Assembly (NCBI GenBank): GCA_030704615.1 | Contig: CM060731.1 | Span: 13,640,001 to 13,704,000 of the forward strand | Reading direction: 5' to 3' | Length of the DNA: 64,000 nt | Origin: Takakia lepidozioides | Taxonomy: Eukaryota > Plantae > Bryophyta | Part shown: positions 18,525 through 47,828 of the stretch, one piece after another | How the letters are laid out: each line of letters starts with the position of its first letter | Numbering within the stretch: the stretch's first letter is position 1 | Made by a program: the position numbers and the translations under genes | Notes under the pieces: generated by a model | What the model saw: only the letters and a program-made list of their open reading frames with translations | Told to the model about the DNA's origin: nothing | Database searches by the model: none

Positions 18525-18600
18525 GTGACGCTCGTGCAAGCCTGGCAGCCCTGGAAAAAAGCAACGAGGTCCACGATGACATCATCAGAGCTGGATTGTC
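18525..18600 (+). pseudogene. Possible degenerate PLS-class PPR gene scrap
   Basis: ARASLAALEKSNEVHDDIIRAGL resembles the PPR L-motif pattern ACASLAALEKGKEVH..II..G. Very short. Confidence 0.35.
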
Positions 18601-19671
18601 TTCTACCATGACAACTTCCACATCCTCCACCATAATAGAATCCACTACAGCAAATGGGGGGGGGGGGTTTGCGACGTCAGCCGCGCCTCCACACCCCGCG
18701 CGGCACTGAGCTTGCGACGCCAACCCCGCGGAGCATGTTTGCGACGCCGGGCCGTCGCAACCAAACCCCGCGGGTCGCCCCCTGGCGCCGGGGCCAGGCG
18801 GCGACGCCTGGCCGTCGCAACCAAACCCCGCGGGTCGCCCCCTGGCGCCGGGGCCAGGCGGCGACGCCTGGCCGTCGCACGGGTTGATGAAGGGCAAAAG
18901 GCAGCCCTTCCGTGCGACGCACAAGCGTCGCCCCCCAGCGAAAGGTAGAAGGCAGCCTTTTCTGGCGACGGCCGGTCGTCGCACGCCGAAAAAAAAAAAC
19001 CCTGTCTTGCCCCTTCTTTCATCGCAGCCCTTTCTTGCAACGCCATGCCGTTGCATGGTGGCATGAAGGGCAAAAGGCCCCTGCGACGGCCGGGCGTCGC
19101 AAACTGCCCAGTTGCCCTATTCTTGCAAAAAAAAAAAAACAGGTCACAGTTTGCGACGGCTGGCCGTCACCGTTTGCGACCCCCGACCTCATAAATCCAT
19201 TCAAAAAAACAAGTCGCAATTGGCAATGGTTGGCCGTCGCCGTTTGCGACCCCCGGCCTCATAAATCCTAAAAAACGCGTCGCAAGTGGCGACGCGTGGG
19301 GGTTGCAGGCAGCGACGACAGGGCTTTCTAGGTTTAGGTTTAGAGCCTTTGGGGGTTCTTAGTTTTTTTTTTTTTTTCATATGGCACTGGGGTAGGGTGT
19401 TTGTTTTTCTTTATGGTTTAGCTTGTTGTTGTGGACCTTCTTGTAGATTGTGACATTCATTTTGATAATTTTCTTGATACCACATCTGTATGTGTTGCTC
19501 CAACATATTCATTGCATCTGCCTTCTTTCTTGAAAGACTACCAGCCACAGCCATATTTGATCAATCATAGAAATAAAGTACAATGTGCATGTACATGTAC
19601 AATCAATCAAAGGGATGGGTCCAGTTCGGTGCGAGAATTGTTATGTAGCTTTGATTTTGTGTCTAATCAAC

Positions 19672-22600
19672 TTAAACATCATCATCTGGAGCTTCTTCAT
19701 CCTCATCAAGCTGCAAGTCTTCTTGGTCATCGGAGTCATCGTCATAAATGGTCCGGCCCTCAAAAAGCACCTCCGAATCATCCTCCACCTCGTTGTCAAT
19801 GGCCGTGTCTTCGTCTCCTTCTCCAACATCCGTATCTTCTAGAGCTTCATCATATAGGGTCCAGGATGCATTGTTCGGGGCGTCATCATCCTCTTCTACC
19901 CCTCTACCCAACCTCCATCATCAGCATCATTATGACCAATCTCTCCGTCCACCGCAATTGCCTCACCCCATGGAGATCCGAGACCATGATAGATACGTCT
20001 TCCTCTTGGCTGAGCATGCACAACCACCTTCCAATTCCCCCCCTCTTGTTTTGTCATCGGAGAAGAAAACTTGTTCCATGTCTGAAGGCCGTGAAAAAGG
20101 CTCATCGGAGGGACGATGAGTAGGGTTGAGCCTATCTGCATTGACGCGCATGAAACCACAATCATCTTGCACTAGTGTTGCGGAGGGCCACACAAGATGT
20201 GGCTGGAACCACCTTCCCTTGAAGAGAAGAGGTCGGTACCTTGTATGCTGAAGTTGGAGTATGTTCTCAAGCTCTCCAATGTACTCAAGTTTGCTCATAG
20301 TAGGTCGTGTATCTCCCTTGCCCCACACGGAGTTTTGCCAATATGTGGCACACAAGCCAGAATCAAAGGTTGTTTTGCGCTTCATGTCAAGAGCACGAAT
20401 GCGGAAATGACGACCATGAACCCAAACCGCCGTGTATGAGGTCGAGAATTGAGAGGGGCCCCTTGCAATGTCTTGCACCAAATCTGAAAGTCCAAAGCCA
20501 CTGTTGGAATGAACTTAGAGGCTGCAATTCCATGGGTAAATTTTGTAAAGGAACATTCCGGCGGCCCGCTCCTCGTCGTGGGCGTCTAGTAACCGGCCTT
20601 GGATGGTTCCGCCTCCATGCAAGCGTCTCCTCCTCTCGTTGCTGAACAAGATTATTGTATCTTGCCTCCCACTCATGTATGGATGGGGTGTTCTTCAGTA
20701 TGAAGTCATGCGCTTGCTCAATCACCAAGGTCGGCAATTTTACCCTCTTCAATTTTTTGGGCAAAACGATGTCTTTGGTTCGTGCATCCTCCTCTACTTT
20801 CCACATCCGAGGGGCTTCCTCATCCACCCTTGCCATGTACTCCGTACAATAGAACATAGCTTCTTGCAACGTATACCCCTCCGCCATGCTACCCTCCGGG
20901 TGCTCCATTTGTCTTACAAATCCTTTCAAAGTCTTCATATAACGCTCAAGGAAGTACATCCACCGAGAATGAATGGGGCCGGCAATCGAAGCCTCTTCCA
21001 TTAAGTGCACTTGGATGTCAAAGAAGGAGGGAGGAAGGTGCATCTCCAACATATACATTACCTCCGCCGCCTCTTTCTTCATGCGTGGAAAATCTGCTTC
21101 TTCCAACTCTTTGGAGCAAATCCACATGAACAAGCCTCCCAATCTATAGATTGTCTCACGAACCTCGGGAGTCAATGTCCCACGTACTGCAATGGGCAAG
21201 ATGTCTTGCAATAGATTGTGGTAGTCATGAGACTTCAAACCATGGACCCCGTCTTCTTCGCTGAACTTCGTACGGAGGGATGACCCATAACTAGTTGGTG
21301 TTCGGACAGCACTTATGGTGGCTATCACTTTCTTGTATTCCTCTTTTGTCCATTGCCAAGGTATGCGCCTATACTTCCACCGTACAACACCATTTAGGTC
21401 CACACCATTTTGTTCGGCCCATCGATGGCGCATGCGACCCTGCTCCTCAAGCTCCTTTCTAACACCGAGAGAATCTCCTTTTGCAGCCATTCTTTTCTTT
21501 GCCGGCGTGCCATGAAGAACCCGAAAAAAGGACGAGCAAACATTCTTCTCAATATGCATGGGATCTAGAAGATGGCGAATCTTCAGGTCCTACATATATC
21601 CCCACCCACAAAGACTTACACAAAAAAATTTACGTGAAAGTGACAATGCAACGCATACCAAATGTGCAATATCACATGCATGCATATGGATATTGACGGT
21701 GTTTTTGTGGAATATGTACCGCCCAATATGGCAACTCGTAGAAGATTGAAAGTCGTTTCATGTCGGGCACGTCCACTTCACCGTCCGTGCCCCCTTCCAT
21801 CGGTCCTCCCAAAACTGCTCGGACGGTGTCATAGGGGGGGGGGGGGGGGGGACGTACTTCCTCTTTGCCATCAAACAAGTGTTTCTCTCTTCTTCTCCAT
21901 CGATGGCTCATATGAAGAAATTTGCGGTAGTTGGGATACATCATCTTGTGAAAACGGCGGGAGCTATGTGCATCAAGATCATCGCCACAATGCAAGCATA
22001 CATGGTACCCTAGTCTTGTACTACACATCCCGCCACATTAACAAAAACAAAAAGTTGTCATGTGCATGGCCCATAATGCCATCTACCCCACTACGGTGCA
22101 CAAGACTGTCGCCGCTACTTCAATCAATCCCAATCCTCATCGATATTATCTGGCATTGACAAGTGAATGTACGCAGGTTGTTCATGGGAAACATAATATA
22201 CCTAGATAATCATGCATTGTCCAAAGCAAGATGTCTCTCATCTGAAAAAATTGTCCGGCCATAGAGTCAAGTGAAGCATCCAATGTCGGGACCCCCCTAT
22301 ATAGCTCCTTAAGTTCATCAACAAGAGGTCGCAAGTACGTGTCCATGTTTGTCACTTGTTTTTTCCCTATGAGACATTCACATCATTGTTTCAATGCTCC
22401 ACCAATATGCAAATTATACTACAAAATAAATTACACGTCTTACTCCATGATTATGTCACTCATCAATATTCCATCCGAATTGCGTCAGAGATCAGAAGTT
22501 TAATGTAAAGTCTAAGGCAATAATAAACATGAAATGAGTACACTCACCTGGCACAATGACAGCCAACATGATATGGTCTTTTTTAATTGAAAGATACGGA

Positions 22601-23734
22601 GGGATGTTGTAATTCACCATGGTCACCGGCCAAGTGGAATGAATACATGACTGGACAGAGAATGGGTTGACCCCATCCGAGGAGAAGCCGAGGTGGACAT
22701 GTCGTGGGTCCTCCAAGAGAAAATGCCACATCTCTTCAATATGCCTCCATGCTTGTGAATCTTGTGGCCCGCACACCTTTCCCGGGGGGCTCCGATGCGA
22801 GGCGTGTCATCTCATGAATCTGGCCAATTCGGGGCTTCGGTATTGTGCCCTCAATCGCGGGATCATCGGAAAGTAATGCATTTTCTAGGATGAAATACCC
22901 CACGCCCCCCACATATAATCATCCCATTAGCACACATAATACAACACCCTTATGTCTTTCCCTTTATGCAGCCTCTATGAATGGTCAAAACCGAACGTCG
23001 CTCCTTCCACTCCTCACTCACTCCTTCCAAAACCACAATCAGATCTTGCATGAGTACTACTCTCTAAACCCTAAACTTTGTGGAATACACTTTACATACA
23101 TTGAGAAGATTAAAGAAATTAATGTCCATGCGAGGGGGGAATGACGCTTTTACCTTGCGTGGTACTTTTTTCCCTTGGACATCATCCCGATATCGGTCTT
23201 TCTTGCACTTTGGGCACTTGGTGAGATGCGAATCCTCTCCGTAGTATAGGGTTTTATCACATGGACATGCATGAAAAATCTTATAGCCAATCCCCACAGA
23301 GTCCAAGACTTCGCGTGCCTCTTTCCGCGACCGTGGCATCTTGGGTTTCAAGTGTGGAGCAAGGATATAGTCTGCAATAGTTCGCATTATGGCAGACATC
23401 ACAACATTACTTATGCCAAATCGAATTTGAAGATTGAGCAAAAGTAAGATTGTTGAAAGTCGACTCACTTTCGCCCATTCGTACAAGGGAGTTCTCGCCT
23501 TCCTCTCCATGTCATTTGAGGGGACCATTTCAAGATCATCGATTGGCCGGGTTCCCTCTTCATGGGATGCATCAGCGCCCACATGATGCATTAAGATATC
23601 CTCCATGGCTTGCACATCCTCCTGGTTAATTCCATGTTCATTGTTGTTGTCACTGTCACTGTCACTGTCATCGTCATCATCGTCCGGTACCGTGGGGGCG
23701 GCGTCTCGCCCACAGCTCCCACAAGATCCAGCAG

Positions 23735-23770
<36 letters not shown>

Positions 23771-23792
23771 ATTTGCCTCCCGAACGATGCAC
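19672..23792 (-). CDS. CACTA TnpD-like transposase (Transposase_21/DUF4218/DUF4216 type), spliced and partly disrupted
   Basis: Motifs HACPCDKTLY, DSQAW, GFSSDGVNPF..STWPV..NYNIPP, MHIEKNV, GLKSHDYH, FFDIQVHL, RWMYFLERYMKTLK. GT-AG introns at about 23153-22867 and 22547-22307 on the minus strand. Confidence 0.9.
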
Positions 23793-24394
23793 TCACCCTT
23801 GCACCATTTTTGAATTAAATCGAATTTAAAATAAATATTTGCATTTAGAAAATATATGATTGCGGTTTTGATGGGCGTAATGATTTTATTTTTAGCTCTA
23901 TTTTATTCTGTGACATCGGGCTTTGCACTACTACATCCATGCAAAAAATGGGACAAAAACAAAATGGAAAAAAATAAGTGTGTTTCTAGGGTCACTTTTG
24001 TAGAACTCTCTATGAAGAGTGCATGAAATTGAAGATAACTCAACTTTGGAGTACAAATGAGAGAACAAAATCTGGTTATGGGTCCAAATGACTTTTGTTT
24101 ACTCCCAAATTTTGCACGCACATTGCATATGCTATCATTAAAGCATATGGCTTGAAAATGGAATAAAAAAAAAAACATCTGCAGACGAAACACAATTTTC
24201 CGTCTCTATAACACGTAGCTGCGTTCAACACTAGAATGACCCATTGAATCAACTTGGTTCAAGCTCATATTTGGTCCACATGTGCATAAGTATGTTTAGA
24301 TCACATATGCAAAGTTGCAACCCACACGAGCAACAAGAATTTTTTTTACATCAATCGATTAATCGGATGTATACAAAGTACATCATGAGAATAT

Positions 24395-24561
24395 CTACAA
24401 TGCCCCTCTACGCGATCCATGTCTCAAAGGAACCATATTTCTATCATACACATCCCACTCACGCTGTAATCGGAGGTCCCAATCATCCCGGGAGAACTCG
24501 TATGATGCAAATAGTTCGCTATCAGCCCTAATAGTCCTACTCGCACATGTCAACACAAACA
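24395..24561 (-). CDS. SET-domain protein, C-terminal part (split by the DNMT-gypsy insertion)
   Basis: MFVLTCASRTIRADSELFASYEF resembles the SET C-terminal A.R.I..GEEL..DY motif. Rejoins in frame with 36853 upward after removing the TSD. Confidence 0.7.
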
Positions 24562-24565
24562 TGTG

Positions 24566-25090
24566 TGTCGTGCGCATACATATCGCTACACAACTACATC
24601 GCTGTCCAAACCACACCACACATATATGCACAATAAAGTAGTCTACCCCAATGATAAGAAGCATAGAAACACTGTTGACACAAAACATGTGAAATCCATC
24701 TCTATCACTCTTTATAATAGAAGTCGAGCCAGGGGCACCCCAAGCTATGGGGACTCCACCCCACAACAACCTACACTCCCATCATGAGTACACTCAGATC
24801 TAAACGCATGCAAGAGCTCGGTCGCGCAGGCTCAACTCGAGAAAGATGAGCTGCGCGACTGCCGCTCTCGTGAAGATAAAACGGACCAGGTGTCAAACTA
24901 AACTTGACACCTGATTTAACACTTGACCTAAATCCAAGTGTTAAATACAAATAGCTAGTTTTATGCTAGCTGTTTTCACACTGTGCTTATTTAACTTGAC
25001 AGCTGTCGTGCGCATACATATCGCTACACAACTACATCGCTGTCCAAACCACACCACACATATATGCACAATAAAGTAGTCTACCCCAAT
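24566..25090 (-). repeat. 3' terminal repeat block A-B-A
   Basis: A 24566-24652, B 24652-25001, spacer GC 25002-25003, A 25004-25090. The two A copies are identical by eye. Confidence 0.95.
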
Positions 25091-25100
25091 CGCCCCCCTA
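25091..25100 (-). promoter_or_regulatory. Polypurine tract (TAGGGGGGCG)
   Basis: Directly precedes AT+TG of the inner A repeat on the sense strand. Identical in copy 2 (13932-13941). Confidence 0.75.
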
Positions 25101-25348: not shown

Positions 25349-27208
25349 CTATCCAATGCAATGTGGACATAACCAATCCCCATCCGGAACCATCTCAAGA
25401 GGTGGAGTCAAGCACCCCATATGCCAACCTCTAGAGCATCGATCACACACCAGCATGGTGGCCGCCCCTTTAGCAGACCCACACAACATGCACCTCAAAC
25501 CTGCAGATACCACTGCCAGGTTTGGGTCAATCCTGCCATCGACATTCGGAAGGTGACATGGCGCACAATTACGCACATGGTCCTTCCAAGTTATGCCATC
25601 CCGACCCTCCAAGACCAAGACGCCTGAGGGCAAGACCTCTCGAACCCTCAAAATAACACGTCCTGCAGTCACATCCAGGGTCGTAGGAGCAGTCTGCTGC
25701 AGATAGACATAGTCACCAGGGTTGAATCTCCGAACCCCAGGACGATAGCCCCCACCACGTATGGTAGCATACCTCAACGTATCACGGTGTTGTGCAATGG
25801 CAAGGTTCTCGAAAGCCATGGGCATGACTCTCTTGAACAACTCTGCACGCTGCTCACATGCACGTGCCCACACATCCGGATCGTCAAGGTTAAGAACTGT
25901 AGCAGCTTCTCTGCGAATGGATGTAGGCAAATCCGGCTCTCGGCCAAAGAGAAGAAAGTATGGTGAGAAGGAGGCAAGTGATGCTTGCTTGCTGAACCTG
26001 TAGCCCATGGCTAACCAGGGTAACTGAAGGTCCCAATCTCCTAGGTGTCCCTTCTGCAAGCCATACTTGCGCAAACCCCTCTTTACTGTCTGAACAACTC
26101 TCTCTGCCAAGCCATCGGCCTCAGGATGATCCCGAGAAGTGGTGCGGTGGTCTATCAAGGCCTTGTCACACAAAGCCTGAAACTCCCCCAAGAACTCTCT
26201 CCCTTGGTCCGTGAGTACCTCAGCTGGAGCACCGAATCGGCTAAGCACACAATCCAGGAATGCATACGCAGCTCCCTCACTAGCCTTATCAGGCAATGGA
26301 ACCAATTCAATCCACTTGGAGAAGTGCTCCACCATCACCAACACGTACTTGTTGTGGCGCATGGTCAGTGGCAACGGCCCTGCGAAGTCAAGACTCCACC
26401 TGTAGCCCAATCCCATGATCGGAAGAGGGTGCAATTGTGGAGTAGGGGCGTTGAATGAAGCACGCACCCTGTCACACACCATGCACCTAGCCACAAATTG
26501 TTGCACCTCTGTGTGCATACCACGCCACCAATACTGCCCCTGCAGTAGACTATGAGTGCGTCGCACCCCAAAATGCCCCAACTCCTCATGGGCATGCCGC
26601 ACTAACCGTGCCCGCTGTGTTGGGTGAGGCACAATCCTCACTCGACCATCCTCCCACACTCGGAGCAGGTGTGTCCCCTCCCACCTGAACCTCTTGGCTC
26701 GTTGTAGGATCCGATCCCTCTCCTTGGCAGTCATAGTGGCTGCCGTGTCTCCACTGCGGAGGTAGTCCAACACAACTGAATCCTCATGTATATCTTTGGC
26801 GCCACCCTGCTCATTGCTGGCCTCAGGGTCCTCAGACACTTGATCTACAGTCATCCCTGTTGTAGGTCCAACCTGGCCTTCCGCTGCCAAGATACACAGA
26901 AATGCAGATGCATGCCATCCGGGCACCATCTCCTCGTCCGTCTCACCATGCCACCGAGCTCCAGTGTCATCCTGCTGGCTCGTGCATGGATTGCGACTCA
27001 ACCCATCTGCATTTCGATTGACCAAACCCGGTCGATGCACCACCTGAAAGTCATACTCTTGAAGGATGAGTGCCCACCGTGCAAGCTTCCCCGTAAGCTT
27101 GTCTGACTCCATCAACCACTTGAGTGGTTGGTGATCCGTGACAAGGGTGAAGAGATTGCCGTATAATAGCACCTGAAGTGTGCCACGGCCCACACTGCAG
27201 CTAAGCAT
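25349..27208 (-). CDS. pol: RNase H C-terminus, integrase (HHCC, DDE) and C-terminal PHD finger
   Basis: VTDHQPL; HEELGH...CMVC; SLDFAG, LTDQG, GLAER; C4HC3 motif CMLC..VCDRC..WH..C..WLCPHC. Confidence 0.95.
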   Translation of the reverse strand: MLSCSVGRGTLQVLLYGNLFTLVTDHQPLKWLMESDKLTGKLARWALILQEYDFQVVHRPGLVNRNADGLSRNPCTSQQDDTGARWHGETDEEMVPGWHASAFLCILAAEGQVGPTTGMTVDQVSEDPEASNEQGGAKDIHEDSVVLDYLRSGDTAATMTAKERDRILQRAKRFRWEGTHLLRVWEDGRVRIVPHPTQRARLVRHAHEELGHFGVRRTHSLLQGQYWWRGMHTEVQQFVARCMVCDRVRASFNAPTPQLHPLPIMGLGYRWSLDFAGPLPLTMRHNKYVLVMVEHFSKWIELVPLPDKASEGAAYAFLDCVLSRFGAPAEVLTDQGREFLGEFQALCDKALIDHRTTSRDHPEADGLAERVVQTVKRGLRKYGLQKGHLGDWDLQLPWLAMGYRFSKQASLASFSPYFLLFGREPDLPTSIRREAATVLNLDDPDVWARACEQRAELFKRVMPMAFENLAIAQHRDTLRYATIRGGGYRPGVRRFNPGDYVYLQQTAPTTLDVTAGRVILRVREVLPSGVLVLEGRDGITWKDHVRNCAPCHLPNVDGRIDPNLAVVSAGLRCMLCGSAKGAATMLVCDRCSRGWHMGCLTPPLEMVPDGDWLCPHCIG

Positions 27209-28482
27209 TCTCCCTCATATGAGCTATACTTAGACTCTGCAGCATTGTTCGAGCGGCTAGCATAAGCCACTACGAACTCTCTTCCCTCATCATCCACCTG
27301 TGTGAGCACCGCTCCAAGCCCCAGCATGCTCCAATCTGTATGCAGCTGAAAAGGACGCCCCCTGATAGGTCGTCTCAAGATGGGCGCCGAGGTCAACCTC
27401 GCCTTGAGCTCTTGAAAAGCTTGTTCTTGCTCATCTTCCCACTGCCACTCCTGGTCCACCTTGGTCAGCTTGGTTAGAGCCTTTGCAATGGCACTAAATC
27501 CCTTAACAAACCGTCTGTAATAGTTTGCTAACCCCATGAAAGCTCGAACTCGGCTCACATCCGTGGGGCGTGGAACCTGTGCAATGGACTCTACCTTAGT
27601 CTGCTGTACCCCCAATCCTCCAGGATATATCATGTGACCCAGATACTCAATCTGGTTGTGGAAAAACTTGCACTTGCCCGGATGTAACTTCAATCCGTGC
27701 GTCCTCAAGCGCTCAAATACCCCCTGAAGGTGTCTCTCATGCTCCTCCACCGTAGCACTAAAGATGATGATGTCATCTATGTAGCACCGAGCAAACTCCA
27801 CCCCTGCTAGAATCCTGTCCATGACTCTTTGAAACTCAGCGGGAGCGTTTTTAAGCCCAAATGGTAAGAACCGCCACTGGTATAGGCAATCCTTCCCGTG
27901 CTCATTGATCCCCCAGAATGCCGTCTTTTGCTTATCCGCCTCCTTGATCGGCAACTGGTGATATCCGGATCGTAAATCCAACGTGCTAAAGACCTTGGAA
28001 TGCCCAATGGCATCAAAGATCTCCTCTGGTGTTGGCATGGCATACCTATCGGACTTGGTCTGACGATTTACAGGCCGGTAATCACCGCACATACGTCTCT
28101 CCGTCCAATTGCCATAGACATCCTTCTTAGCTGGCATCACTGTGGCTGAAGCATACTCTCCACCAGAGAGCTCCACCAAACCTGCCTCCCAGAGATCTTG
28201 AGTCCTCATCTGAATCAAAGACCTCTCCATGTCACTGTATCTATAGGGTCTCCGAAAGATTGGCGTGTCAGTGGCCAACTCAATACGGATCTCTTGACCC
28301 TTCAGTGCTCCCAAGTCCTTCAAACTGAAGGCAAAGCAATTCCTATAAGCCCTCAGGAACCGCCGTATACGTCGTCTCTCTCCTCCGGTGACAATGGGTC
28401 CAATGTCAGGCTCCCAATTGTCCTCCGTAACTGCAACCTTAAGTCCAGTGGGCTTAGAGGTAGAGGACGCGTCCCGTGGTTG
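27112..28482 (-). CDS. pol: reverse transcriptase and RNase H
   Basis: DYRPVN, LDLRSGYHQ, LPFGLKNAP, YIDD, LHTDWS. Same frame as the DNMT ORF, separated only by one TAG at 28483-28485. Confidence 0.97.
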   Translation of the reverse strand, partial: QPRDASSTSKPTGLKVAVTEDNWEPDIGPIVTGGERRRIRRFLRAYRNCFAFSLKDLGALKGQEIRIELATDTPIFRRPYRYSDMERSLIQMRTQDLWEAGLVELSGGEYASATVMPAKKDVYGNWTERRMCGDYRPVNRQTKSDRYAMPTPEEIFDAIGHSKVFSTLDLRSGYHQLPIKEADKQKTAFWGINEHGKDCLYQWRFLPFGLKNAPAEFQRVMDRILAGVEFARCYIDDIIIFSATVEEHERHLQGVFERLRTHGLKLHPGKCKFFHNQIEYLGHMIYPGGLGVQQTKVESIAQVPRPTDVSRVRAFMGLANYYRRFVKGFSAIAKALTKLTKVDQEWQWEDEQEQAFQELKARLTSAPILRRPIRGRPFQLHTDWSMLGLGAVLTQVDDEGREFVVAYASRSNNAAESKYSSYEGECLAAVWAVAHFRCYYTAISSPLSRITNHSSG

Positions 28483-30030
28483 CTATGCTGCAACCTCTTG
28501 AGCAGTACCCCCTTCCTGCTCAGTCAATGACAAGGCCTCATCCTGCCCCATCATCTCATCATTGAGAACCTCCTCATCCCGAGAAGAATCCCCAACCTCA
28601 TCCATCACAGCTGCCTTCGCTGCCAACTCCCTCTGAACCTCGAGCACCTCCCACATGTGCCATGGATGTCTACACCTCGTGGTCCTCACCGGCTCGCCCC
28701 CACTCGCTGCCTGTACCGTCTCGGTAGGCAGAGAGACCGTCAAGGGAAGTGCACTCCGCACTCTACGTTGCTCAGCCATAGCCAAGCTGACAATCCAGGT
28801 CAAGCAATTGAGATCCATTGCTTGCCCCAACACCTGACGACGTGATGCCTCAGAAAGAGAAGGCACCGCCGTGGTCCCAGTGGAAAACCCCATAGCCCGC
28901 TCTCGCTCGTCGGCATTAGGCTCCACTAACTGCTGCAACTGAGCATCCCACAGGAGGCCAGGTCCACCATCCCGAAAAGCATGGGATCCTGGGAAGCTGA
29001 GCAGTGTAGGTAATGCTGCTCGTGGTTGACCCACCCTGTTGACCACTGCCAAAGGCGAACGGTCATCGTGTCTCACACGTTGAGACTGCCTTCCTGTGTC
29101 CAAAATGCCATCCACGGTGAGGTGTGCTGGCCGCTGCACCCCATCAAATGCACGCTTGAGCAGTGCGGGTGGCATCAAGTTAGTCCACCATAGTCGTGGA
29201 CGATGAGCCCGTGACCCCACTGCAGCTGCATCCAGCAACACTGCTGACCCAAGCCACGACCGGACTTGATGCACACTGGCCATCACCCTGGCCCGAGAAT
29301 CACCCATCAGTGGTACATTCTCCAAGATGTATGCTGGAGATACAGCTTGATGAAGCTGCAAGCAGCGCAAAATCCGCACCATCTCCCAAAACAGACCCGT
29401 CCTCGAGTCTCGCAATCCATTGCCATGCCCGGCTGATGAATGCCCTTGGCAGGGCCAACCTGCCACTATCAGATCAATGGAGCCAACCTGCTCCAAATCT
29501 TGCGCCCCCAACAAGGAAATGTCTGCTGGCAAGGCTTGTTGGTATCCACGAACTGCAGACACAGGCAACAAGTCAGGGTACTGCTGTACCAACTGAGCCA
29601 CATGGCGCAGTGAGACGCGTCGTGCAGTCTCATCCCTCTCCACATACAGGTAACGCCTTACCCGCACACCTGCCTGTAGCACAGCAGCCAATCCGGTGCT
29701 GATCCCGCCAAACAAGTCCAGAAGGCAAATGCCTTCATCCGGCCGCTGCCACACAAGAGGTGTGGTGTCCAATGGCGACAACTGAGGTGGCCCTGGTGCA
29801 ATCACCGCACTCTCCTCCTCTCCTGACGGTACAAAAGCTTCTTCCCAAGCTTGTTGCACCCGTCCATCAGCAGCTTGCTGCAAATCCTTGCTCGTACCCC
29901 ACAACGGGGTGTGAGCAACCATGGCAGGCAACTCCGCCGTACCATGCATGTCATCCTGCTCTGCTGGAGGTGGCACATCCTCTGCATGGGCATTGCCTTC
30001 CAGCAACTCTCCAGGCCAACTAACGCAGCT
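28483..30030 (-). CDS. pol-embedded C5 DNA cytosine methyltransferase, DNMT3-like
   Basis: Motif I LLDLFGGISTG; IV DLIVAGWPCQ; VI YILENV; VIII LDAAAVGSRAHRPRLWWTNL; IX-X ERERAMGF...SEASRRQVLGQAM. Canonical, non-permuted motif order. Confidence 0.93.
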   Translation of the reverse strand, partial: SCVSWPGELLEGNAHAEDVPPPAEQDDMHGTAELPAMVAHTPLWGTSKDLQQAADGRVQQAWEEAFVPSGEEESAVIAPGPPQLSPLDTTPLVWQRPDEGICLLDLFGGISTGLAAVLQAGVRVRRYLYVERDETARRVSLRHVAQLVQQYPDLLPVSAVRGYQQALPADISLLGAQDLEQVGSIDLIVAGWPCQGHSSAGHGNGLRDSRTGLFWEMVRILRCLQLHQAVSPAYILENVPLMGDSRARVMASVHQVRSWLGSAVLLDAAAVGSRAHRPRLWWTNLMPPALLKRAFDGVQRPAHLTVDGILDTGRQSQRVRHDDRSPLAVVNRVGQPRAALPTLLSFPGSHAFRDGGPGLLWDAQLQQLVEPNADERERAMGFSTGTTAVPSLSEASRRQVLGQAMDLNCLTWIVSLAMAEQRRVRSALPLTVSLPTETVQAASGGEPVRTTRCRHPWHMWEVLEVQRELAAKAAVMDEVGDSSRDEEVLNDEMMGQDEALSLTEQEGGTAQEVAA

Positions 30031-30788
30031 GTGAAGGCGGCTAGTGTTGGCATCTTGCCCCGCTGGGCAGCTGCAATACCCCCAATGAATGTCACAGGGA
30101 GCTGTGCACGGCGACCATCCCCTGACTGCCATCCAGGCCTGTAGGATGCTGACTCCTCCCAGAAATCCAGGGTGAAGCCCATGGGGTATAACACTGCCCC
30201 ACCAACGAGGACATCGTAAGAGACCGCGTCTGTCACAATGGCCTTGGCTCGCATCACTGAGCCATCTACAGGATGATCCGGCTGCAGTCTAATAGCCAAC
30301 TGATGCCGTGTCATGCCGCGAGCCTGCTCTGATCCTCCCAGAGATGTCTGTATCTGGAAAGGACAAGGCTCCATATCCGCCTCCATGAGGCCCAAACCTG
30401 CAATAGCAGCTCTGCCCAACATCAGTGGCTGAGCTCCTGAGTCCAACAAGACCCGCAGTGGCCGGTACTTCTTGCCTGCCGGTCCACTCAAAGTGAAAAT
30501 GCCTCCCTGGTTGTCTAACAAGACAACTCCAGGTGTCACCATGGCGCGCTCAATGGCTGGCCTAGCTGGCAGCTCCGTCAACCTGGCAGCTGCAACTTGC
30601 CATGGCGCAGCCGTGGCAGTCTTGACCCTCAAATCCGAGGATCCCTCTGCCACTACACCTTCCACTAACTCCGCAGAAGATGAAGTGACCTCCCCACTCT
30701 CACAGAGTGTTGCTGCTAGTCTGAACACTGCAGCTGGTCTCACCCCCGGCGTCGCAATCATGTTGCCGAGAACAGTGGGGCCTGACAC
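30030..30788 (-). CDS. pol: aspartic protease
   Basis: VLLDSGAQ and YDVLVGG in ORF 29802..30788. Frameshifted relative to both gag and DNMT. Confidence 0.88.
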
Positions 30789-32683
30789 ACAGAGGTGGCT
30801 GCCCCCAATAACACACCGGCCGCACTAGCCTTGGCAGCAGGAGTCAATGCTGCACGTGTAGCTCTCCCCAATGGCATAGTAACCTCCGCCTCGGTAACAG
30901 TCGGGCGAGAACTAGGTGCCATGGATGGCGTCGACACAGTCTCCGCCAATGTGAATGACTGAGGAAGCCTTGCCTGACGGCTTGCCTCCCCACGCTGTGG
31001 ATCCAATTCCACCTCTGCACCTCGTGGCTCAGGAACTCGTGCTGCTCCTCGAGTCACGGCTGCAGCAGACTCCACCTGCTCTAGTGGTAGTGCTGCTCCG
31101 CACATAAATCCCATGCCTCCCATATCTCCTCCCTCAGGAGCAGGAGGTGGACCATCCCGCCTGGGAGCCGGTACCGCCTGAGCTATAGCCATGGCAGCGA
31201 GCCTCTGCTCTAGCTGCTGAAGCCGGTTGGCCATGCCTTGATCAACGCCCTGACCTCCGCGTCCTTGGCCATGTTGAGCTTGCCCTTGGCCTGCACCTCG
31301 TGCCCGACCACCTCGTCCTCTCTGGGCTGGTCCACCTCGCCCCCGGCCACCATTGTTCCCTTGGAACTGGCCTGGGCGCAACTCAGGATGCAAGTCATAA
31401 CACTGGGCATCTCCATGCCCATACTTGCCACAATGCCCACACTGCAACTGTGCAGGCTGTGCTTGTGCCGGCCTTCTGCCACTCTCTGGGCAATCTCTCT
31501 TGACATGGGGTCCTCCACATGTCCAACATATCACCCCTGGTTGCTGTTGGCCTGCAAAAGATGCCACGGGCCTCTGCACCTGAGGCCCCCTGTAAGCTCC
31601 ATGGAACTTGGGCTGGGCAACCTTGCCCCCCTGACCACGCTGTTGGGCAGTCCCTTGTGCTTGTGGGCTGACAGCTGTGCCCCGTACAGGCATGTCCTTG
31701 CCAAATCCAATTGTAACAACTCGCTCCTCCACCATGTTGAGCTCAATCCGCTCAGCCAGCAGAAACACATCTGCTAATGTGGGTTGGGCTGCTTGTAACA
31801 GGGTTGCATCTCGCACCCTTCTCTTGAGCTCCTTGTCCAGAATTCCATACCAAAACTGGATTGCCTGAGCTTCAGTAACCCCTTGGGTCACACTTATCAA
31901 GCGCCTCATACGAGTGTACGCCTCTCGCAGGCTCTCACTGGGTTTGCGCTGGAAGTCTTGCAAACTTCGCAGCTTCTCTGTCCGTACACCTTGGTAGTTC
32001 CTCCGCAACTCCTGGAAGAACTCCACCACCGGGTTGAATCTAGGCACATGTGTTGTAGTCGTGGCAGGAGAAGTAGTAGCACCTTTTGAACTGGTACCAC
32101 CTACAGAAGTACCAGCACTACTTGCTCCACTACTAGTGCTGGCAGTGGGAGCTATTGGTACTGATGCAGCTACTGGTCGCGTCGTGCCTCGAGTAATGGA
32201 GACGTAGTCAGGTGACCAATACATCCTCCACTCCTCAATCTCTGCTTCATGTCCTCGCCTGAACTCGTGGTAATCGTCCATAGGCGGGCCTTCCAAATGC
32301 TGGAACAGTCCCTTCCACGCCATGAATGGGGTGAATAGCTGTGGATTGCGCATCTGCTGCAAATCACACCAGCTGTCGAACTCCTGGATAAAGTCATCCA
32401 ACTCGATTGTGCCCACAGCTCCAGAGTACCTACGAGGCCCCTTGGTAGCTCCATACATCTCCTCCATGTCGTCCCACAACAATGGCGAATGAAAGTGCAC
32501 ACCTGTTGATGAAGCCTCCGAGTCTGTGTCTGACGCTACAGTAGTTGAGGGTGGCGGTGAAGGTGGTCTGAACCGAATACCTCGTCTTGTGAACCCACTC
32601 TCACTGTCACTGCTTGTAGCCGTACTCCCCTCAAAACCCTTGGGTAACTCCGTAATGACACTCACAATGTGCACCTCCTCCAC
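30758..32683 (-). CDS. gag (capsid plus two zinc knuckles)
   Basis: QRKPSESLREAY capsid-like motif; CWTCGGPHVKRDC and CGHCGKYGHGDAQC. Confidence 0.92.
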   Translation of the reverse strand: MEEVHIVSVITELPKGFEGSTATSSDSESGFTRRGIRFRPPSPPPSTTVASDTDSEASSTGVHFHSPLLWDDMEEMYGATKGPRRYSGAVGTIELDDFIQEFDSWCDLQQMRNPQLFTPFMAWKGLFQHLEGPPMDDYHEFRRGHEAEIEEWRMYWSPDYVSITRGTTRPVAASVPIAPTASTSSGASSAGTSVGGTSSKGATTSPATTTTHVPRFNPVVEFFQELRRNYQGVRTEKLRSLQDFQRKPSESLREAYTRMRRLISVTQGVTEAQAIQFWYGILDKELKRRVRDATLLQAAQPTLADVFLLAERIELNMVEERVVTIGFGKDMPVRGTAVSPQAQGTAQQRGQGGKVAQPKFHGAYRGPQVQRPVASFAGQQQPGVICWTCGGPHVKRDCPESGRRPAQAQPAQLQCGHCGKYGHGDAQCYDLHPELRPGQFQGNNGGRGRGGPAQRGRGGRARGAGQGQAQHGQGRGGQGVDQGMANRLQQLEQRLAAMAIAQAVPAPRRDGPPPAPEGGDMGGMGFMCGAALPLEQVESAAAVTRGAARVPEPRGAEVELDPQRGEASRQARLPQSFTLAETVSTPSMAPSSRPTVTEAEVTMPLGRATRAALTPAAKASAAGVLLGAATSVCQAPLFSAT

Positions 32684-33202
32684 GTGACACTATAAGGCTC
32701 TAGTACTAATCTAATAGTGACACGGGTGGGCACCTGTTGCAGTCTAAGGGTCATATCCCAATGGCTCAGGGCACCTGCACCTGCATCCACCGCAAGAACT
32801 CCTATGGTTGGCTGGTCATCAACCCAGCCTCACCATAGAAGAAACACTGGTGGTCTTGCTGGTCATCACTCCAGCCTCACCACCGACAGCATACTCTAGG
32901 ATTGACCGGTGATCAAATCCGGCCTAATCCCTATGAAAGCAAGCGCCCACACAAAACCAACATGGCGCACAGTCAAGCATGCAGGTGTTGGGGGGGATCC
33001 AAACACAAGAAATCAAAACATCAACACCCCCACACCAAAATCCAGCAGCCACGCTGATCCTGCAGAATATCCCAGCCCAAAACCCCGGACTGACTGGCCT
33101 CCACCAAGAGAGGCTTTGGCAACTACAAGTATAAGGTAATGAAAATAGTACAAAGATGGAGGGGAAGAATAGAAGCCCGCCCAAGCAAGATCTAACCCTG
33201 AT

Positions 33203-33952
33203 CTATGCTATCAACTTCCAGACTTCTCTCAAAGTACCTCGCTCTGCTTGATGGTAAGGTGTAGGAGGTATATCTATGTCCAGAAACCTGCCACTAACCT
33301 TGTCCCAAGCTACAGTAGCTCGCTCTAACCAACCCTCCTCCTCTTTCTGCCAGGTAGAGACAAAGCAACACTCTGCTATCTCCCGCTCACTGAACACTAA
33401 AGAAAACAAAGGTAGGGTCTGATAGTCTCTCAACTCGAAAGCTTTGAGACGGTTGCGGGTGTCTTCATTGCGAATGACTGCATCGCCTTCAAACAGAACA
33501 AACTTGTCCTCGCTAATGAACCCCCGCTCGTGGTTGCCTTGTGCAGAGCGTGTCTGTCTGCAACACTGTCTAATTGCACAAACTTGTGCAGCTCCTGCTC
33601 CTCTGCTCCAGTACACCACGGCCTTGTGGCTGAACACCTTGGTCCCTGGAGCTGTCTTTGGCTGTGTTCCAAGCCTAGCTTTCACCCACTTTGGTATTTC
33701 ACCTACAGCTGCAGAACTGCTGGCTCCAACAGAGTTCTGACTGTCCAAGGCGATATTGAGGCCCTCAATGCCAACTACAGCAGTCTGTTGTCTACTGCTA
33801 ATGCCTGACTCCCAGTATGCAATCAACTCGTCCAACTGTTCTCCACTCAAATCAGTCTGAGTTCCTTGGGAAACATAGATCCTGTCCCCTTGTGTGCACA
33901 GGCTAAGAGAAGAGACCTGCCCTTCAATTACGTCCTCATTTCCCCCAGCCAT
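33203..33952 (-). CDS. Unknown 249-aa accessory ORF upstream of gag
   Basis: Intact ATG-to-stop ORF, same strand as gag-pol, inside the element. No recognised domain. Confidence 0.5.
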   Translation of the reverse strand: MAGGNEDVIEGQVSSLSLCTQGDRIYVSQGTQTDLSGEQLDELIAYWESGISSRQQTAVVGIEGLNIALDSQNSVGASSSAAVGEIPKWVKARLGTQPKTAPGTKVFSHKAVVYWSRGAGAAQVCAIRQCCRQTRSAQGNHERGFISEDKFVLFEGDAVIRNEDTRNRLKAFELRDYQTLPLFSLVFSEREIAECCFVSTWQKEEEGWLERATVAWDKVSGRFLDIDIPPTPYHQAERGTLREVWKLIA

Positions 33953-36502
33953 ACAGGGAGTACATCCACAGGTTTGTCTCTCATATAGGCCAGCACAGGT
34001 TCTAGAAACAGGATTGTGGATATTTTATGGCACACTCACACTCTAAAAATTCCATAGATTTTTAGCAGAGTCCCAAAAACAGAAACCAGGTCTAGGTAGG
34101 TAGATTTCCCCTTTCTGCAGCTATCCCCCCAAAAACTGAGTCAAACAGAGTCCATTTGACAAAGATATGACCAATTTGGCTTTAAATCATTTAAATTAGA
34201 TCAAAAGGGCCCCTTTTTTTTTTTTTTTAAAGGGTTTTCAAATTTAAAAATTTAAAGTTACACCCAAAACATTTGGTAACTGGTTCCCGGTTCCCTAAGT
34301 TCTATATGGTTTCCTAGGTTCCCTAGCCACGTGCCCTATAATTTCTAGGATTTAGTTGTGTTTACAAATGCACCCCCCACAGCTCTTGGTTACCAGTGAC
34401 GTGCTCTCCTCCAGTCGAGATCCGTAGCTATGCCGAGCCTTAATCCTTTGCACCAATATTCCCAACAAAAGCAAGAGCACTTACAATGCAACCCCGGAAA
34501 GCACCAGAGCTAACTAGCTTGATCAAGAACGCTTACAGCCCTTCATGCGTGCTGATTTTTCAAGGTGACAACAACAGATCTGCTATCACTGATTGTGAAA
34601 GCCTTTCCATGGAGTTGGCACAGGCTGCCCTCAAGTTCTGGATTGTTCACATAGACCGAGCATGTCATGTAGTGAGCTGGGCCCCTTCTGTCTTCAAGGG
34701 ACCGGCAGTTTCAGATGACACCACATTAATGCCTAAATTGTCATCCTTCCCTGCTCCTTTTTATCTGATTCCTCCACGGTCAGATTCTTCAAGCCGCATC
34801 AGATTCCAGCTTACAAGCCTTTCAATTGACGCTCAAAGTGCCACATCCACACTTGCTTGGTTATTGGGCAGAACTGACGTCAATCAGGCAAGAAGGGAAA
34901 TTTCTGGATCAGACCAGTGCATTGATCATTTCCCAAGACCACGTATGTTGCTTCTTTCGGCGCTTCTCCAGAAGCCAGAGTCATTAAGTTATGGCGCTCC
35001 CCTCAGCAAACCATCCGCCAGCGAGCCTATTCACAGTTCTGCTCTGTCCATCTTTCGCAACAGCAGTTTTGCTCTCTTGCAAACCCTAGCTTCTAGTCAG
35101 CGCAAGTCATCCCTTCAATTCTTGATGGCCTTGCTCCCTCCTCTGGCAGGTGCATAAGTTACAAGGCTGCTTCACATGTTTGCTCATCCTCCAGCATTCA
35201 ATGAATGGACGAATGGCTGCACTGCAGGACACCACCAGGCAGTAGAATACGCCAAGTTCCTTGGTATTCCTATCTCTTGCTCATTCCACAGCCCCTCAAC
35301 ATTACCAATCACATTCGAAGCTCTTGGAGTTCCTGCTCCTGGTACGATTCAATTGCAGCAAAAGCCAGACATGCTAGCTAGAAAAACTGCCAGACTCTGA
35401 TCAGGCTAAGAAAGAAGATACAGCCACTGTGACAGCTGCCAATGTGCCCACATGCGTCAAGAAAAGCTACAGCCCAACTTCAGTGGAAAGATGTGCTTTG
35501 CCTGCAGAGGAGCCTGATACAGACAGTATGTTCAGTTTGCCACTTGCAGGACCAGGCTCTCTAATTGAGGAGCCAGAATGTGGAAATGATGAAAATGGAG
35601 AGAGTGAGGTGTGCTCTACTGCAAAGGATGTTGGAGTGGGCATCTTTCAAATTGCTACCCCAGGTACAGAGGAAGCGAAGAGAAGTTCGGAGGAAGGAAA
35701 CATGCGGGTTGCCAGTGATGGTATTGCTATTGACCAGGATGCTACCTCAGAAAATCAATTAGATTCTGCTCTTCCGCTGCCTTTCCTGACCGCACAATAC
35801 GTCACTCTTTCCCATTTCTTCCTTAACGGCTGCTGCGCCTCACTGAGGCTCGAAGAACTGCTACGATCACATGTTCGATCTCCAAGTCTTTACGTCCGCT
35901 TCCACCTCATTTCTTCCCTGCGTTTGTGGGTGTGACGAGGAGCAAGGTAAGAGGCACTTGCAGTTACCCTACACACGACCTCACTGACCGCTTCTGGTCG
36001 GTGCACATCGAACTAAGGCGAGCAGCCCATACTCTACCTCCTGACTGCCCCACCTCGCCCTCTCTGCACGCCGTTCCATTCTCCCTCATCTCCATCTCCA
36101 GGCATGGAAGTTCTACTCATCTGCTCGATTACAGGTACCCCTTTAAGTCTCGCACTTGGTCAGTTTCCGAACGGCCAATCGCTGCTACACCATGATGTCT
36201 CCTCACCGACCAAAACGAAGGCTGCTTCCCCGCAGTATAGCTCCGTCCTGCCCCGGCGGCCTCATGCCAGAACCAACGCTATCCTCAACCAGTAGAACAA
36301 GACCAGTTCTTTGCCCCTGCTTGCCATGCAGCCTGCCTCCATGGACCATCTATATACCCAGAAACCAACGATGATCGAAACCAGCATGTTTTTTTTTTTT
36401 TAAGCTTCTCAAAGTAAGCATTACTTACACACAGGTAATCATACAAGTGCTAACCCTCAACTCCTACCTTGCACTCACAGGTAAGAGGTGATCTTTCTCT
36501 AG

Positions 36503-36852
36503 TGATAAGAAGCATAGAAACACTGTTGACACAAAACATGTGAAATCCATCTCTATCACTCTTTATAATAGAAGTCGAGCCAGGGGCACCCCAAGCTATG
36601 GGGACTCCACCCCACAACAACCTACACTCCCATCATGAGTACACTCAGATCTAAACGCATGCAAGAGCTCGGTCGCGTAGGCTCAACTCGAGAAAGATGA
36701 GCTGCGCGACTGCCGCTCTCGTGAAGATAAGACGGACCAGGTGTCAAACTAAACTTGACACCTGATTTAACACTTGACCTAAATCCAAGTGTTAAATACA
36801 AATAGCTAGTTTTATGCTAGCTGTTTTCACACTGTGCTTATTTAACTTGACA
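36503..36852 (-). repeat. 5' terminal repeat (B only, 350 bp)
   Basis: Matches 24652-25001 with two substitutions noticed by eye; reads TGTCA...TATCA on the sense strand; not adjoined by an A copy. Confidence 0.95.
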
Positions 36853-37996
36853 TGTGCATCCCCTCACAGTATACTGACGTATGACCACAAAAGCTCTTAT
36901 GCCCATCGCTTCGCTCGTCCCATACTACATTGGTTCTCCTAGGATGATCAAAAGAACTATTGACCAGCCCAGCGACATTGCCGAAGATGTCGGGGTCACC
37001 TTCACAAAATCTGATCTCAATGGGAGACAACCCCCGTCTACGTACATCCTGTCCGTTGACACACAAAATGTAGGGTAGGATGTATGGGGCTTCGAGGTGT
37101 AATGTACGGAACTCCACGGAGGTGTAGTATGGACCGTAGTATGGAAACAAGTCCACTATGGTGTTTCTCCGAGGAGGAACTACAATATCATTGACTGTGA
37201 ATAAATCCCGACCCCTAGCAGGGTCTGTAGCGGCTCTCACAACATACCGTCTCCCCCAATACTCAACTCCACATTTTCTCGAATGGGGGTGGGAGAGTCG
37301 AGATGATTCTCCCAACAATGAGGCTGGACGGTCCTCAGTAACATAGTCCTATGCGCTTCCCATCGGGGGCGAGGATCCGGCTCAGGCCGCCCAAGCCGAA
37401 GGGGAGGAAACCTAGGGCGAAGCCGACCCCTCCTAGGGGTTCGGGGGGCACATGCACGTGGAGGTGGAGGTGGTACTGCTGGCAGAGGAGATAAAAGTGG
37501 AGGTGGTTGAGGATGTAATGTCGGAGGTACAGCCGGGGGTACAACGTCCGGTACTACCGAAGGTGGATCAGACAAAGAAATAGACGGGGGGGGGGAGGAG
37601 GCCACAATCAGGGGACCGCCTGAGGAAACTGGAGGGGGGGGGGGCCTGCTCGTCGCCGGCCATAATGCCTATGACACCTACCCGTTCCCACACTTAGTGC
37701 ACCAACACTCATCCTGTCCAGGGGGGGGGGGGGGGTCAAAGGTGGACGTGGTTGGACAGGGTGGCCCACGAGGGGGCAACCCGCGGCGCGCGCCGACTCG
37801 ATCCCGGAGTGTCAACATCCTCCGCATCACCTGAAATTTGGCCCCGGTCCCTTCTACAATTGTGCCCGGCAGCATGTATTGGATCAGGTGCAATGGGTGG
37901 CTCCTCACCACGAAAAAAGGTCGCTCTAGGGCCACAATCAATATGTGGTACTACCTCCCTATCCTCGAGGGAGACGGGTTGATGTTTCCTCACCAT
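36853..37996 (-). CDS. SET-domain protein, N-terminal part (Pro-rich linker plus SET N-half), frameshifted
   Basis: ATG of MVRKHQ at 37996, a Pro-rich segment, then RGRDLFTVNDI..LFPYYGP..GDPDIFGNVAGLVNSS..TNV. Confidence 0.65.
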
Positions 37997-39021
37997 TGTC
38001 GAGCGGCTTTTACTCACCCATCCCTTCGCTATCCGAGGCGGGAACTCCAAGATAGAAGAGTTAGAAATCTCTAAGCACTCAGCCCGCTCAGAATAATCTC
38101 AGTCATGACCTACGGCTAGTGTATCATGGGGGTGTTTCCTATTTGTATTCCTTCCCGTATTCATGTTAGTTACCTTACTGTTGGTATTTAAGTATCAGAT
38201 TGCTTCAGCAATCTATCGGATTCCATCAACTCATCCATTCATTCCACAGCTTCACTCAGATCTCTCTACACAGTGTGAGTATGAAGTATGTATCAGATTA
38301 ATATCTATCAAGTATCAGGCTGAAGCCATGGTGTCTCTAATCTACTTTACATTACAATTCTACAGCTTGCATTCATCAACTAACAATAGATCGTCACTTC
38401 TCCTACTGCGTGCTCTTCATCTTTCCATTCAAAGATGTGCTCTCCCCTCTATTTCCCAGCCCTGATGTAAGAAGTCCCCCCCCCAAAGTGATCCCCAGAA
38501 GTCATTTCTCGTCCTCCCTGCTCTTTGCTTTTTCCACCTACAAGCTGTTCTAACCGCTTTCCTAACTAACCGTCATTCATGTAGTACACGTTCCTTTTTC
38601 AGATGTCGTTCCCCCACCGTTGTTCCCTGCCAATGATAACTGTTCCCAGCTGTGCCGAGCTGTGACTGGCTGTATCAGGCCATGGCGGGCTGTGACTGGC
38701 TGTGTCGGGCTGTGTAGGGCTGTGCGAAGTTGTGGCGCTGTGTCGGGCTGTAACGGGCTGTGTTGGCTGTGCGAAGCTGTGATGGCTGTGTCTGACTGTG
38801 TCGGCTGTGACGGACTGTGACGGGCTGTGTTGGCTGTGCGTAGCTGTGACGGGCTGTGTTGGACTGTGACGGGCTGTGATGGACTGTGTCGGGCTGTGTA
38901 TCTCCCCCCTAAAGCCTGTTGCTGTCACCTCTAAAGCTCCTATTGGTCTTAGTCTGTGTAAAAATTAAGGGTACCCCACAGATCCCATAAAAGCGTCTAA
39001 GTCCCAAGCAGCCCTCTAACA
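37997..39021 (-). repeat. 3' LTR of gypsy element 2
   Basis: Direct repeat of 59007-59881, with a longer internal GGCTGTG tandem array (~38640-38900). Confidence 0.95.
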
Positions 39022-43344: not shown

Positions 43345-43585
43345 GGCTGTGTTGAGCTGTGACAAGCTGTGTCATACTGTGGTACGCTCTGATAGGCTGT
43401 GTGGCACTGTGGTAAGCTGTGATAGGCTGTGACACGCTGTGGTAGGTTGTGATAGGCTGTGTCACGCTGTGATGGGCTGTGATGGGCTGTGCCACACTGT
43501 GATGGGCTGTGATAGGCTGTGCTGCGTCGTGATGGGCTGTGATAGGCTGTGTCGCGCCGTGATGGGCTGTGATAGGTTGTGCCAC
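43345..43585. repeat. 30-bp tandem repeat (GTGATGGGCTGTGATAGGCTGTG...)
   Basis: About eight visible units between pol and the 3' ORFs. Confidence 0.85.
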
Positions 43586-43699
43586 ACTTGTACTGCCCAC
43601 CCTGGTCATATACGCTCGGCCTAGCGACAAGTGCTCCATACTCCGTTGGTCGTGACTGCTTCTGCGTTTCAACATGCAAATGCTGCTGGTTTGTCATGG

Positions 43700-47689: not shown

Positions 47690-47828
47690 TGGGCCTCATT
47701 CATAGGAGCTCTCATCTCATTCTGGTGTCTAATCCAGAACGAACAGGCTGCCTTGCGATGTCCTGGCTGATTACAATAGTAACACAATTCTTTCACCATT
47801 GGGTCCTCGCCCTTGGTCTGCTCTTGGA

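Follow-up and report, generated by a model that had tools for sequence, protein, structure and literature searches.

The bryophyte Takakia lepidozioides carries an abundant family of Ty3/Gypsy retrotransposons in which a DNMT3-type cytosine methyltransferase (DNMT) domain follows Gag and protease and is parted from the reverse transcriptase (RT) by a conserved in-frame stop codon. The copy described here occupies positions 36852 to 24566 (12,287 bp) of a 64,000-nucleotide (nt) stretch of contig CM060731.1 (assembly GCA_030704615.1, positions 13,640,001 to 13,704,000), which we refer to as the window and whose numbering is used throughout; features are on the minus strand unless stated otherwise. 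With only slightly better than even confidence, we read this copy as a frameshifted member of a split-repeat lineage whose intact copies would make a Gag-protease-DNMT3 protein at capsid level and the rest of Pol by stop-codon readthrough, the packaged enzyme methylating the element's own complementary DNA (cDNA).

The DNMT domain (28750–29748) is uninterrupted and lies in a frame that extends from 28486 to 30030. An initial annotation of this region had named a full set of methyltransferase motifs, all of which could be located in the frame: motif I (DLFGG, 29718–29704), the catalytic PC (29454–29449), ENV (29322–29314), RxRxxW (29202–29185), motif IX (ERERAMGF, starting at 28908) and motif X (GQAMD, 28827–28813). 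The match to Pfam profile PF00145 reached 49.8 bits against a curated cut-off of 22 (E = 4.4e-13), bearing out the family to which that annotation had pointed; this above-cut-off score, together with motifs I, IV, VI, VIII, IX and X, identifies the domain as a C5 methyltransferase. Motif I comes first and motifs IX–X last, so that the order is unpermuted, unlike that of DRM enzymes. The best PDB match of the single sequence, by phmmer, was DNMT3A (E = 6.5e-10), and a profile built from 30 relatives ranked DNMT3A (1.9e-30) ahead of DRM2-type enzymes (4.5e-17), M.HhaI (5e-10) and DNMT2 (about 1e-6). DNMT3A was also the best Foldseek match (E = 8.8e-17) of an AlphaFold2 model of the domain (mean predicted local distance difference test score 73; core mostly >90). 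Motif order and all three comparisons thus agree with the DNMT3-type, non-DRM assignment made earlier. We conclude that the domain is, as judged from its sequence and predicted fold, a complete, unpermuted DNMT3-type C5 methyltransferase, closer to DNMT3A/B than to DNMT1, DNMT2, DRM or bacterial enzymes. Its key residues are widely shared in a set of 220 related domains whose columns have a median conservation of 0.47: the catalytic Cys is present in 214 of 216 aligned relatives, the ENV Glu in 216/220, the motif VIII Arg in 213/217 and the Gly that binds S-adenosylmethionine (SAM) in 192/194. In the PC motif, Glu replaces Pro in 69 of 216.

The DNMT-bearing frame is closed by a TAG at 28485–28483, beyond which the same frame runs into RT and stays open for 456 codons. 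The stop stands in a TAG-CAA-CCA context (28477–28485) that fits the CAR-YYA pattern, a signal needed downstream of UAG for readthrough in tobacco mosaic virus (TMV; PMC2754532), and is likely leaky. Matches to this hexamer pattern occur at 20 of 7,120 coding-region positions of the element, and no in-frame Met follows the TAG of the window until residue 85, already within RT. No variant was found at 28477–28487 in any of four sequencing runs at a 2% threshold; the flanks hold 30 variant rows. A contig from another organism, 87% identical, crosses the TAG without change. Of 80 matching metagenome loci, 72 were set aside as distant DNMTs (one of them, L026, showed no retroelement domain) and eight, L001–L008, were analysed. 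In all five that span the junction (L001, L002, L004, L005 and L006) the stop, either TAG or TAA, stands in frame with RT and the next codon is CAA; L003, which is without RT, was left out of this count. Consistent with this, 17 relatives of at least 900 amino acids with Gag and/or protease end 57–162 residues past the DNMT core without RT, several with matching C-termini, although some of the 17 are 'partial' gene models or products of short contigs. Four Klebsormidium-type proteins, P0207 (K. nitens GAQ93235.1, annotated as partial), P0142, P0087 and P0224, end within about 13 residues of the DNMT core, a hint that a post-DNMT stop may occur in that clade too.

We conclude that the TAG is a conserved feature of the family and not damage. 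The initial annotation had placed the domain inside pol, in frame with RT apart from one TAG. The shared frame is confirmed; the TAG is no lesion, and the conserved stop parts DNMT from RT, which changes the amount of enzyme to be expected. Because the stop is conserved, the DNMT domain closes the first open reading frame (Gag-protease-DNMT) rather than sitting inside pol, and the enzyme is therefore likely to be made at the level of Gag. The RT-RNase H-integrase-PHD portion is likely produced by readthrough of the stop.

The ends of the element depart from those of a textbook long terminal repeat (LTR) retrotransposon. A 350-bp repeat, A, forms the 5′ end (36503–36852, starting with TGTC) and recurs at 24652–25001 with 99.4% identity; an 87-bp repeat, B, is present at 25004–25090 and, 100% identical, at 24566–24652, where it forms the 3′ end, both copies ending with GACA. 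The resulting layout is A-coding-B-A-B, and there is no canonical pair of identical LTRs around the coding region. A 4-bp target-site duplication, CACA, flanks the element (36853–36856 and 24562–24565). When the flanks are joined through a single CACA, a continuous 220-codon frame is restored, in support of these limits; the interrupted frame corresponds to 36857–37348 plus 24395–24565. By eye this frame looked SET-domain-like, an assignment that was not upheld: Pfam matched neither half, and the longer one gave no match in the PDB. L006, a complete copy from a related family, has the same layout and a 4-bp AAGG duplication.

Upstream of the first B lies a polypurine tract (25091–25100) that is kept in L001, in L006 and in a second copy within the window. 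The latter (13224–14999, about 88% identical) comprises a 3′ part with the integrase end, PHD finger, polypurine tract and B-A-B, and is cut at 15000 by the end of a CACTA element. The internal B-A junction, GACA-GC-TGTC (24998–25007), is a predicted integrase cut site and is the same in L001, L006 and L008; its 2-nt spacer differs in the second copy (AC) and in L007 (TA). These differences rule out the AGCT of the junction as the target of the enzyme. The A-B junction reads CA-T-TG, CA-AT-TG or CA-CT-TG among copies.

Adjacent to the 5′ A repeat is a predicted primer-binding site (PBS; 36491–36502) that lacks a TGG start and is of the self-priming type: it is complementary at 11 of 12 positions to a segment inside A (36687–36698) that would be both the RNA 5′ end and the primer, and that is kept in the second copy. 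Such complementarity was reached in 1 of 500 shuffles for the window and in 0 of 500 each for L001 (15/16) and L006 (19/20, a count inflated by a local hairpin). Primer and PBS covary in L001 and L006, each of the two families having paired sequences of its own. In minimum-free-energy folds of the window, L001 and L006, the PBS pairs with the predicted 5′ end, and in L001 and L006 the 3′ copy of A carries TATAAA about 30 bases upstream of the primer site. The pairing fits self-priming of the kind described for Tf1.

The remaining coding parts establish the class of the element. A gag region (30758–32689; first likely ATG at 32467) contains two zinc-knuckle-like motifs and matches Retrotrans_gag below the cut-off (E = 0.0013). 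The aspartic protease (30198–30458; DSG at 30443–30435) was recognised from its sequence and matches relatives of which P0021 and P0033 carry PF13650. RT and RNase H (27115–28482; YIDD at 27783–27772) match Pfam RVT_1 and RT_RNaseH, and the best PDB match of RT is Ty3 RT (E = 4e-64). The end of RNase H, a DDE integrase (H2C2, rve) and a C-terminal PHD finger (25355–25495) follow at 25349–27214, again by Pfam. The gag-protease-RT-RNase H-integrase order, the Ty3-like RT, the DDE integrase, the TG…CA ends and the short target duplication are those of Ty3/Gypsy elements. A tyrosine recombinase, the mark of DIRS, Ngaro and PAT elements, had no Pfam match in the nine frames scanned, an integrase being present instead; a chromodomain after the integrase, the mark of chromoviruses, is absent by Pfam, with the PHD finger in its place. 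The best PDB matches of that finger are CHD4, PHF12, the first PHD finger (PHD1) of KDM5A/B, and ATXR5. Several of these fingers read unmethylated H3K4, as does the ADD domain of animal DNMT3.

Upstream of gag is an extra frame of 273 codons (33203–34024) with high depth in the local family, no Pfam match and no significant match in L001–L006; it was considered as TraN, and this was not accepted (Atlas match <0.9, low recognition). Farther upstream, a segment with approximate limits 34200–36400 is missing from most copies, with a summed contig depth of ~500–2,500, compared with ~1e6 over gag-pol (run X2). It holds two plus-strand frames (34444–35157 and 35378–35935) without Pfam match, and a 2,927-nt contig from run X5 matches it with some divergence; the segment may have been captured from the host or may be a nested insertion.

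Three one-base frameshifts, which the initial annotation had not listed, interrupt this copy, near 30761 (gag), 30024 (past protease) and 27165 (RT/RNase H). Contigs of other copies differ at these sites in three, four and four of the four runs, respectively, and relatives keep Gag, protease and DNMT in one frame. Base runs at the three sites are only 1–2 long, which does not support homopolymer slips in the assembly. On these comparisons the frameshifts are private to this copy, which cannot encode a working polyprotein. Since A and B together show two differences in 437 bp, the insertion is young, as the initial annotation had supposed. That annotation had also named the absence of the domain from other copies as a reason to abandon its reading; read depth is even across gag, DNMT and RT in four runs, the same arrangement recurs in many species, and the family is high-copy.

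Among relatives that bear an organism name, the closest (50–73% identity) come from Calypogeia, Marchantia, Riccia and Sphagnum, and others from Closterium, Klebsormidium nitens and Scenedesmus; no fern, lycophyte or seed plant appears among the named matches, which are a minority of all matches. The suggestion that methyltransferase-bearing retrotransposons extend to land plants therefore holds. So does the proposed kinship with the Klebsormidium element: the CCHC-protease-DNMT order recurs in K. nitens GAQ93235.1, which groups with the present element in one DNMT clade. Marchantia relatives with open Gag-protease-DNMT frames (e.g. Mp_4g09160 and Mp_8g17980) are annotated as hypothetical or as DNA-methyltransferase. 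Viral contigs yielded distant DNMTs only (best-segment identity 24–38%), which served as outgroups.

A quick IQ-TREE analysis of 67 rows placed all 53 Gypsy-DNMT rows in one clade (SH-like approximate likelihood-ratio support 99, without bootstrap), with the window in a group of eight that includes Calypogeia, Marchantia and Sphagnum (support 99), a position in keeping with a bryophyte host. The one host DNMT3 in this tree, a single fish sequence on a long branch (P0317), stands apart from the retroelement clade. Elements with a second architecture, RT-RNase H-DNMT-integrase-PHD, Scenedesmus included, make up a DNMT clade of their own (98); the monophyly of this type has a support of 1.0 in the DNMT tree and is unsupported in the RT tree (0.115). 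In L007 (1313–9909) and L008 (699–8707) the DNMT likewise lies between RNase H and integrase; both have an ACA-NN-TGTC internal junction, and the pol of L008 is open over 2,034 codons. In trees of 83 elements, RT and DNMT agree on 21/27 and 23/26 strong splits, with no strong conflict. This congruence suggests that the two have long been inherited together and speaks against a capture in Klebsormidium alone, although horizontal transfer between plants may be an alternative to vertical descent. Between the window family and the L001 family, DNMT dN is 0.22–0.23, lower than that of Gag (0.30–0.35) or protease (0.35–0.36), dS is ~3 or saturated, and ω is ~0.07. With dS near saturation, these estimates indicate that the DNMT is under purifying selection between families.

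These data suggest how intact copies might replicate. Transcription would start inside A, and the RNA 5′ end would prime reverse transcription as in Tf1. Most ribosomes would halt after the DNMT, so that each particle would contain many copies of it, which the protease would free inside the particle. After ordinary strand transfers the DNA would have B+A as its LTR, and its two ends would be joined; we infer this joining because the integrated form is a circular permutation of such a DNA. Integrase would then cut the internal GACA-NN-TGTC, drop the 2-nt spacer and make the 4-bp duplication, yielding the permuted A…B-A-B form, with the PHD finger steering integration by reading histone H3. The DNMT would methylate the new DNA before or at integration, so that the copy arrives marked like resident repeats. 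Methylation of its own cDNA is our best guess for the use of the enzyme.

Several observations weigh against this reading. The complete CAR-YYA is found only in the window family; the five junction-spanning loci read CAA-CCC, of which the first five bases fit, and carry an in-frame ATG two codons further on (three codons past the stop by another count, in the L001-type loci). RNA structure 3′ of the stop is not consistently strong (z −0.9 to −2.4), and in Tca2 the region flanking the stop did not by itself direct readthrough in the experiments described (PMC2194720). At least five relatives have a DNMT-RT fusion without a stop; given these fusions and the clade with DNMT between RNase H and integrase, bulk expression is not needed in every lineage. 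The end-joined, circular intermediate is suggested by junction sequences only. The constraint seen between families is not repeated among close, decayed copies, where DNMT ω is 0.53–1.04, somewhat above RT (0.39–0.61) and integrase (0.30–0.39); the dN/dS comparison that the initial annotation had proposed is thus favourable at the first scale and not at the second. A CpG-depletion test revealed no extra footprint of self-methylation, the observed/expected ratio being 0.51 for the element and 0.19–0.27 for the window's other Ty3-type element. Finally, no methylation was obtained in yeast with the K. nitens domain on its own, a result that its authors call inconclusive (PMC5890265).

If the enzyme is active, it might instead work in the nucleus on chromosomal DNA, whether the target region, resident copies or competitors, and so damp or shape transposition. 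We regard this as unlikely, while granting it real weight. Bulk enzyme exceeds the need of the two cDNA strands in a particle, the lack of extra CpG loss from the element is as this alternative would have it, the DNMT3b of the moss host is a heterochromatic enzyme with de novo activity (PMC6453930), and host-level effects were raised by de Mendoza et al. (PMC5890265). However, a DNMT translated within the Gag precursor would be packaged by default, the enzyme is without a targeting domain of its own, and in the chlorophyte-type clade it is flanked by RNase H and integrase, a position that links it with the cDNA complex. A different objection leaves the anatomy intact and concerns only how the stop is passed: splicing, re-initiation or an internal promoter might replace ribosomal readthrough. 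The ATG shortly after the stop in L001-type loci would suit re-initiation, Tca2 has a promoter at its gag-pol junction (PMC2194720), and some annotated Marchantia and Sphagnum gene models cross the DNMT-RT junction. Against this, the frame is kept across the stop in six of six sequences with an invariant CAA, no Met precedes RT residue 85 in the window family, and a 2,173-nt contig of run X5, which is RNA only by guess, crosses the stop with nothing skipped. Such a bypass therefore seems improbable to us.

We give still less credence to the idea that the domain is kept for binding DNA or RNA, by flipping bases or by holding cDNA ends or the internal junction, with methyl transfer incidental. 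The yeast result for K. nitens and the frequent Glu in place of the PC-motif Pro could be read in this way, but near-invariance of the catalytic Cys, Glu and Arg and of the SAM-binding Gly across a green-plant-wide family makes it very improbable. Chance capture of a host DNMT3 fragment, a nested insertion or an assembly chimera in one copy might be suspected from the low-copy 5′ segment and from the frameshifts that flank the domain towards the protease; the even depth of gag, DNMT and RT in four runs, the same order in many species and the congruent trees have already refuted it, and its probability is negligible. Packaging of a Gag-level enzyme that methylates the element's own cDNA remains the reading we prefer. 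A wider proposal is possible but doubtful: that these elements form an unclassified, green-plant-wide Ty3/Gypsy lineage, maybe older than the chlorophyte-streptophyte split, combining a capsid-level DNMT3 made via a leaky stop, tRNA-free priming and an integrase acting on the internal palindromic junction of end-joined DNA, with many copies in bryophytes, whose main de novo enzyme is the host DNMT3, that write their own methylation and may add to the host methylome.

The annotated Marchantia relatives with open frames turn what was an algal curiosity into a system testable in model plants. As to why retrotransposons carry a silencing enzyme, apparent production at the level of Gag and inheritance with RT across green plants are two clues. 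Split repeats together with a DDE integrase point to an integration route unlike that of textbook LTR elements; standard LTR finders, which rely on paired LTRs, would likely miss or misread such elements, and counts of DNMTs in bryophyte genomes may be inflated by them.

Elsewhere in the window, an old fragment on the plus strand (12570–12860) is 75% identical to the RT-RNase H region of the DNMT element. The CACTA-type DNA transposon that cuts the second copy spans 15000–23800 and has a DUF4218 transposase frame (20387–21589). Another Ty3-type element lies at 38473–59785, with gag-pol at 43008–49109 (minus strand), repeats at 37997–38770 and 59007–59785 (94.6%), strong CpG depletion, a 623-codon extra frame (40728–42599) and 10-bp tandem repeats. 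An array of ~116-bp units, each with a palindromic core (50400–56000), is either satellite-like or made of DNA-transposon subterminal repeats. A pair of 1.6-kb repeats (9928–11519 and 61442–63004; 90% identical) is unrelated to the DNMT element.

The closest known system, KnitGypsy-Dnmt3, is described from Klebsormidium nitens only, as an acquisition in that lineage, present in few copies and with DNMT and RT sharing an ORF (de Mendoza et al. 2018, PMC5890265). The Takakia element shares with it the Gypsy domains, an unpermuted, intronless DNMT3-type domain, DIRS-like split repeats and purifying selection; it falls in one DNMT clade with K. nitens, and its between-family ω is below 0.2. In contrast to the single DNMT-RT-RNase H ORF of KnitGypsy-Dnmt3, the same frame is here split by a conserved stop, and the high-copy land-plant family, the self-primer, the integrase PHD finger and the 4-bp duplication further set it apart from that element as described. 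SymbioDIRS-Dnmt3 elements of Symbiodinium, whose domains methylate CG de novo (PMC5890265), likewise join a DNMT3-type domain to A-coding-B-A-B repeats; as described, they use a tyrosine recombinase, whereas we find protease and DDE integrase domains as well as a 4-bp target duplication. Two Symbiodinium DNMTs fall outside the Gypsy-DNMT clade, on long branches of the quick tree.

Stop-codon readthrough is also used by murine leukemia virus gag-pol and by SIRE1. As in the leaky stop of TMV (UAG-CAR-YYA), an in-frame stop is followed here by CAA-CCA and would divide an abundant from a rare product (PMC2754532). Unlike TMV-type recoding, the stop follows Gag, protease and DNMT, which places the methyltransferase on the abundant side, and readthrough is in our case predicted from sequence. 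The PBS resembles those of Tf1/sushi and Tcn1 elements in being complementary to the element's own 5′ repeat and not to a tRNA end, and self-priming is known in plants for Tcn1 and TAR elements (PMC6317226). Tf1/sushi and Tcn1, as described there, have ordinary paired LTRs and chromodomains, whereas the Takakia family combines split repeats with a PHD finger and a DNMT. In Cymbomonas and Euglena, EpiLTRs also unite a DNA methyltransferase with a histone reader in an LTR element; they carry a DNMT4-related enzyme, DAM and a chromodomain, and their authors separate them from streptophyte Gypsy-DNMT3 elements (bioRxiv 10.64898/2026.05.21.726589). The word 'streptophytes' is used of such elements both there and in PMC12344493. 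In the literature searched we found no account of bryophyte or chlorophyte members, of the conserved stop or of self-priming, although figures, Repbase, subscription papers and preprint supplements may hold some. We conclude that the element is a variant of a kind already known from K. nitens, and that this kind extends from green algae to land plants.

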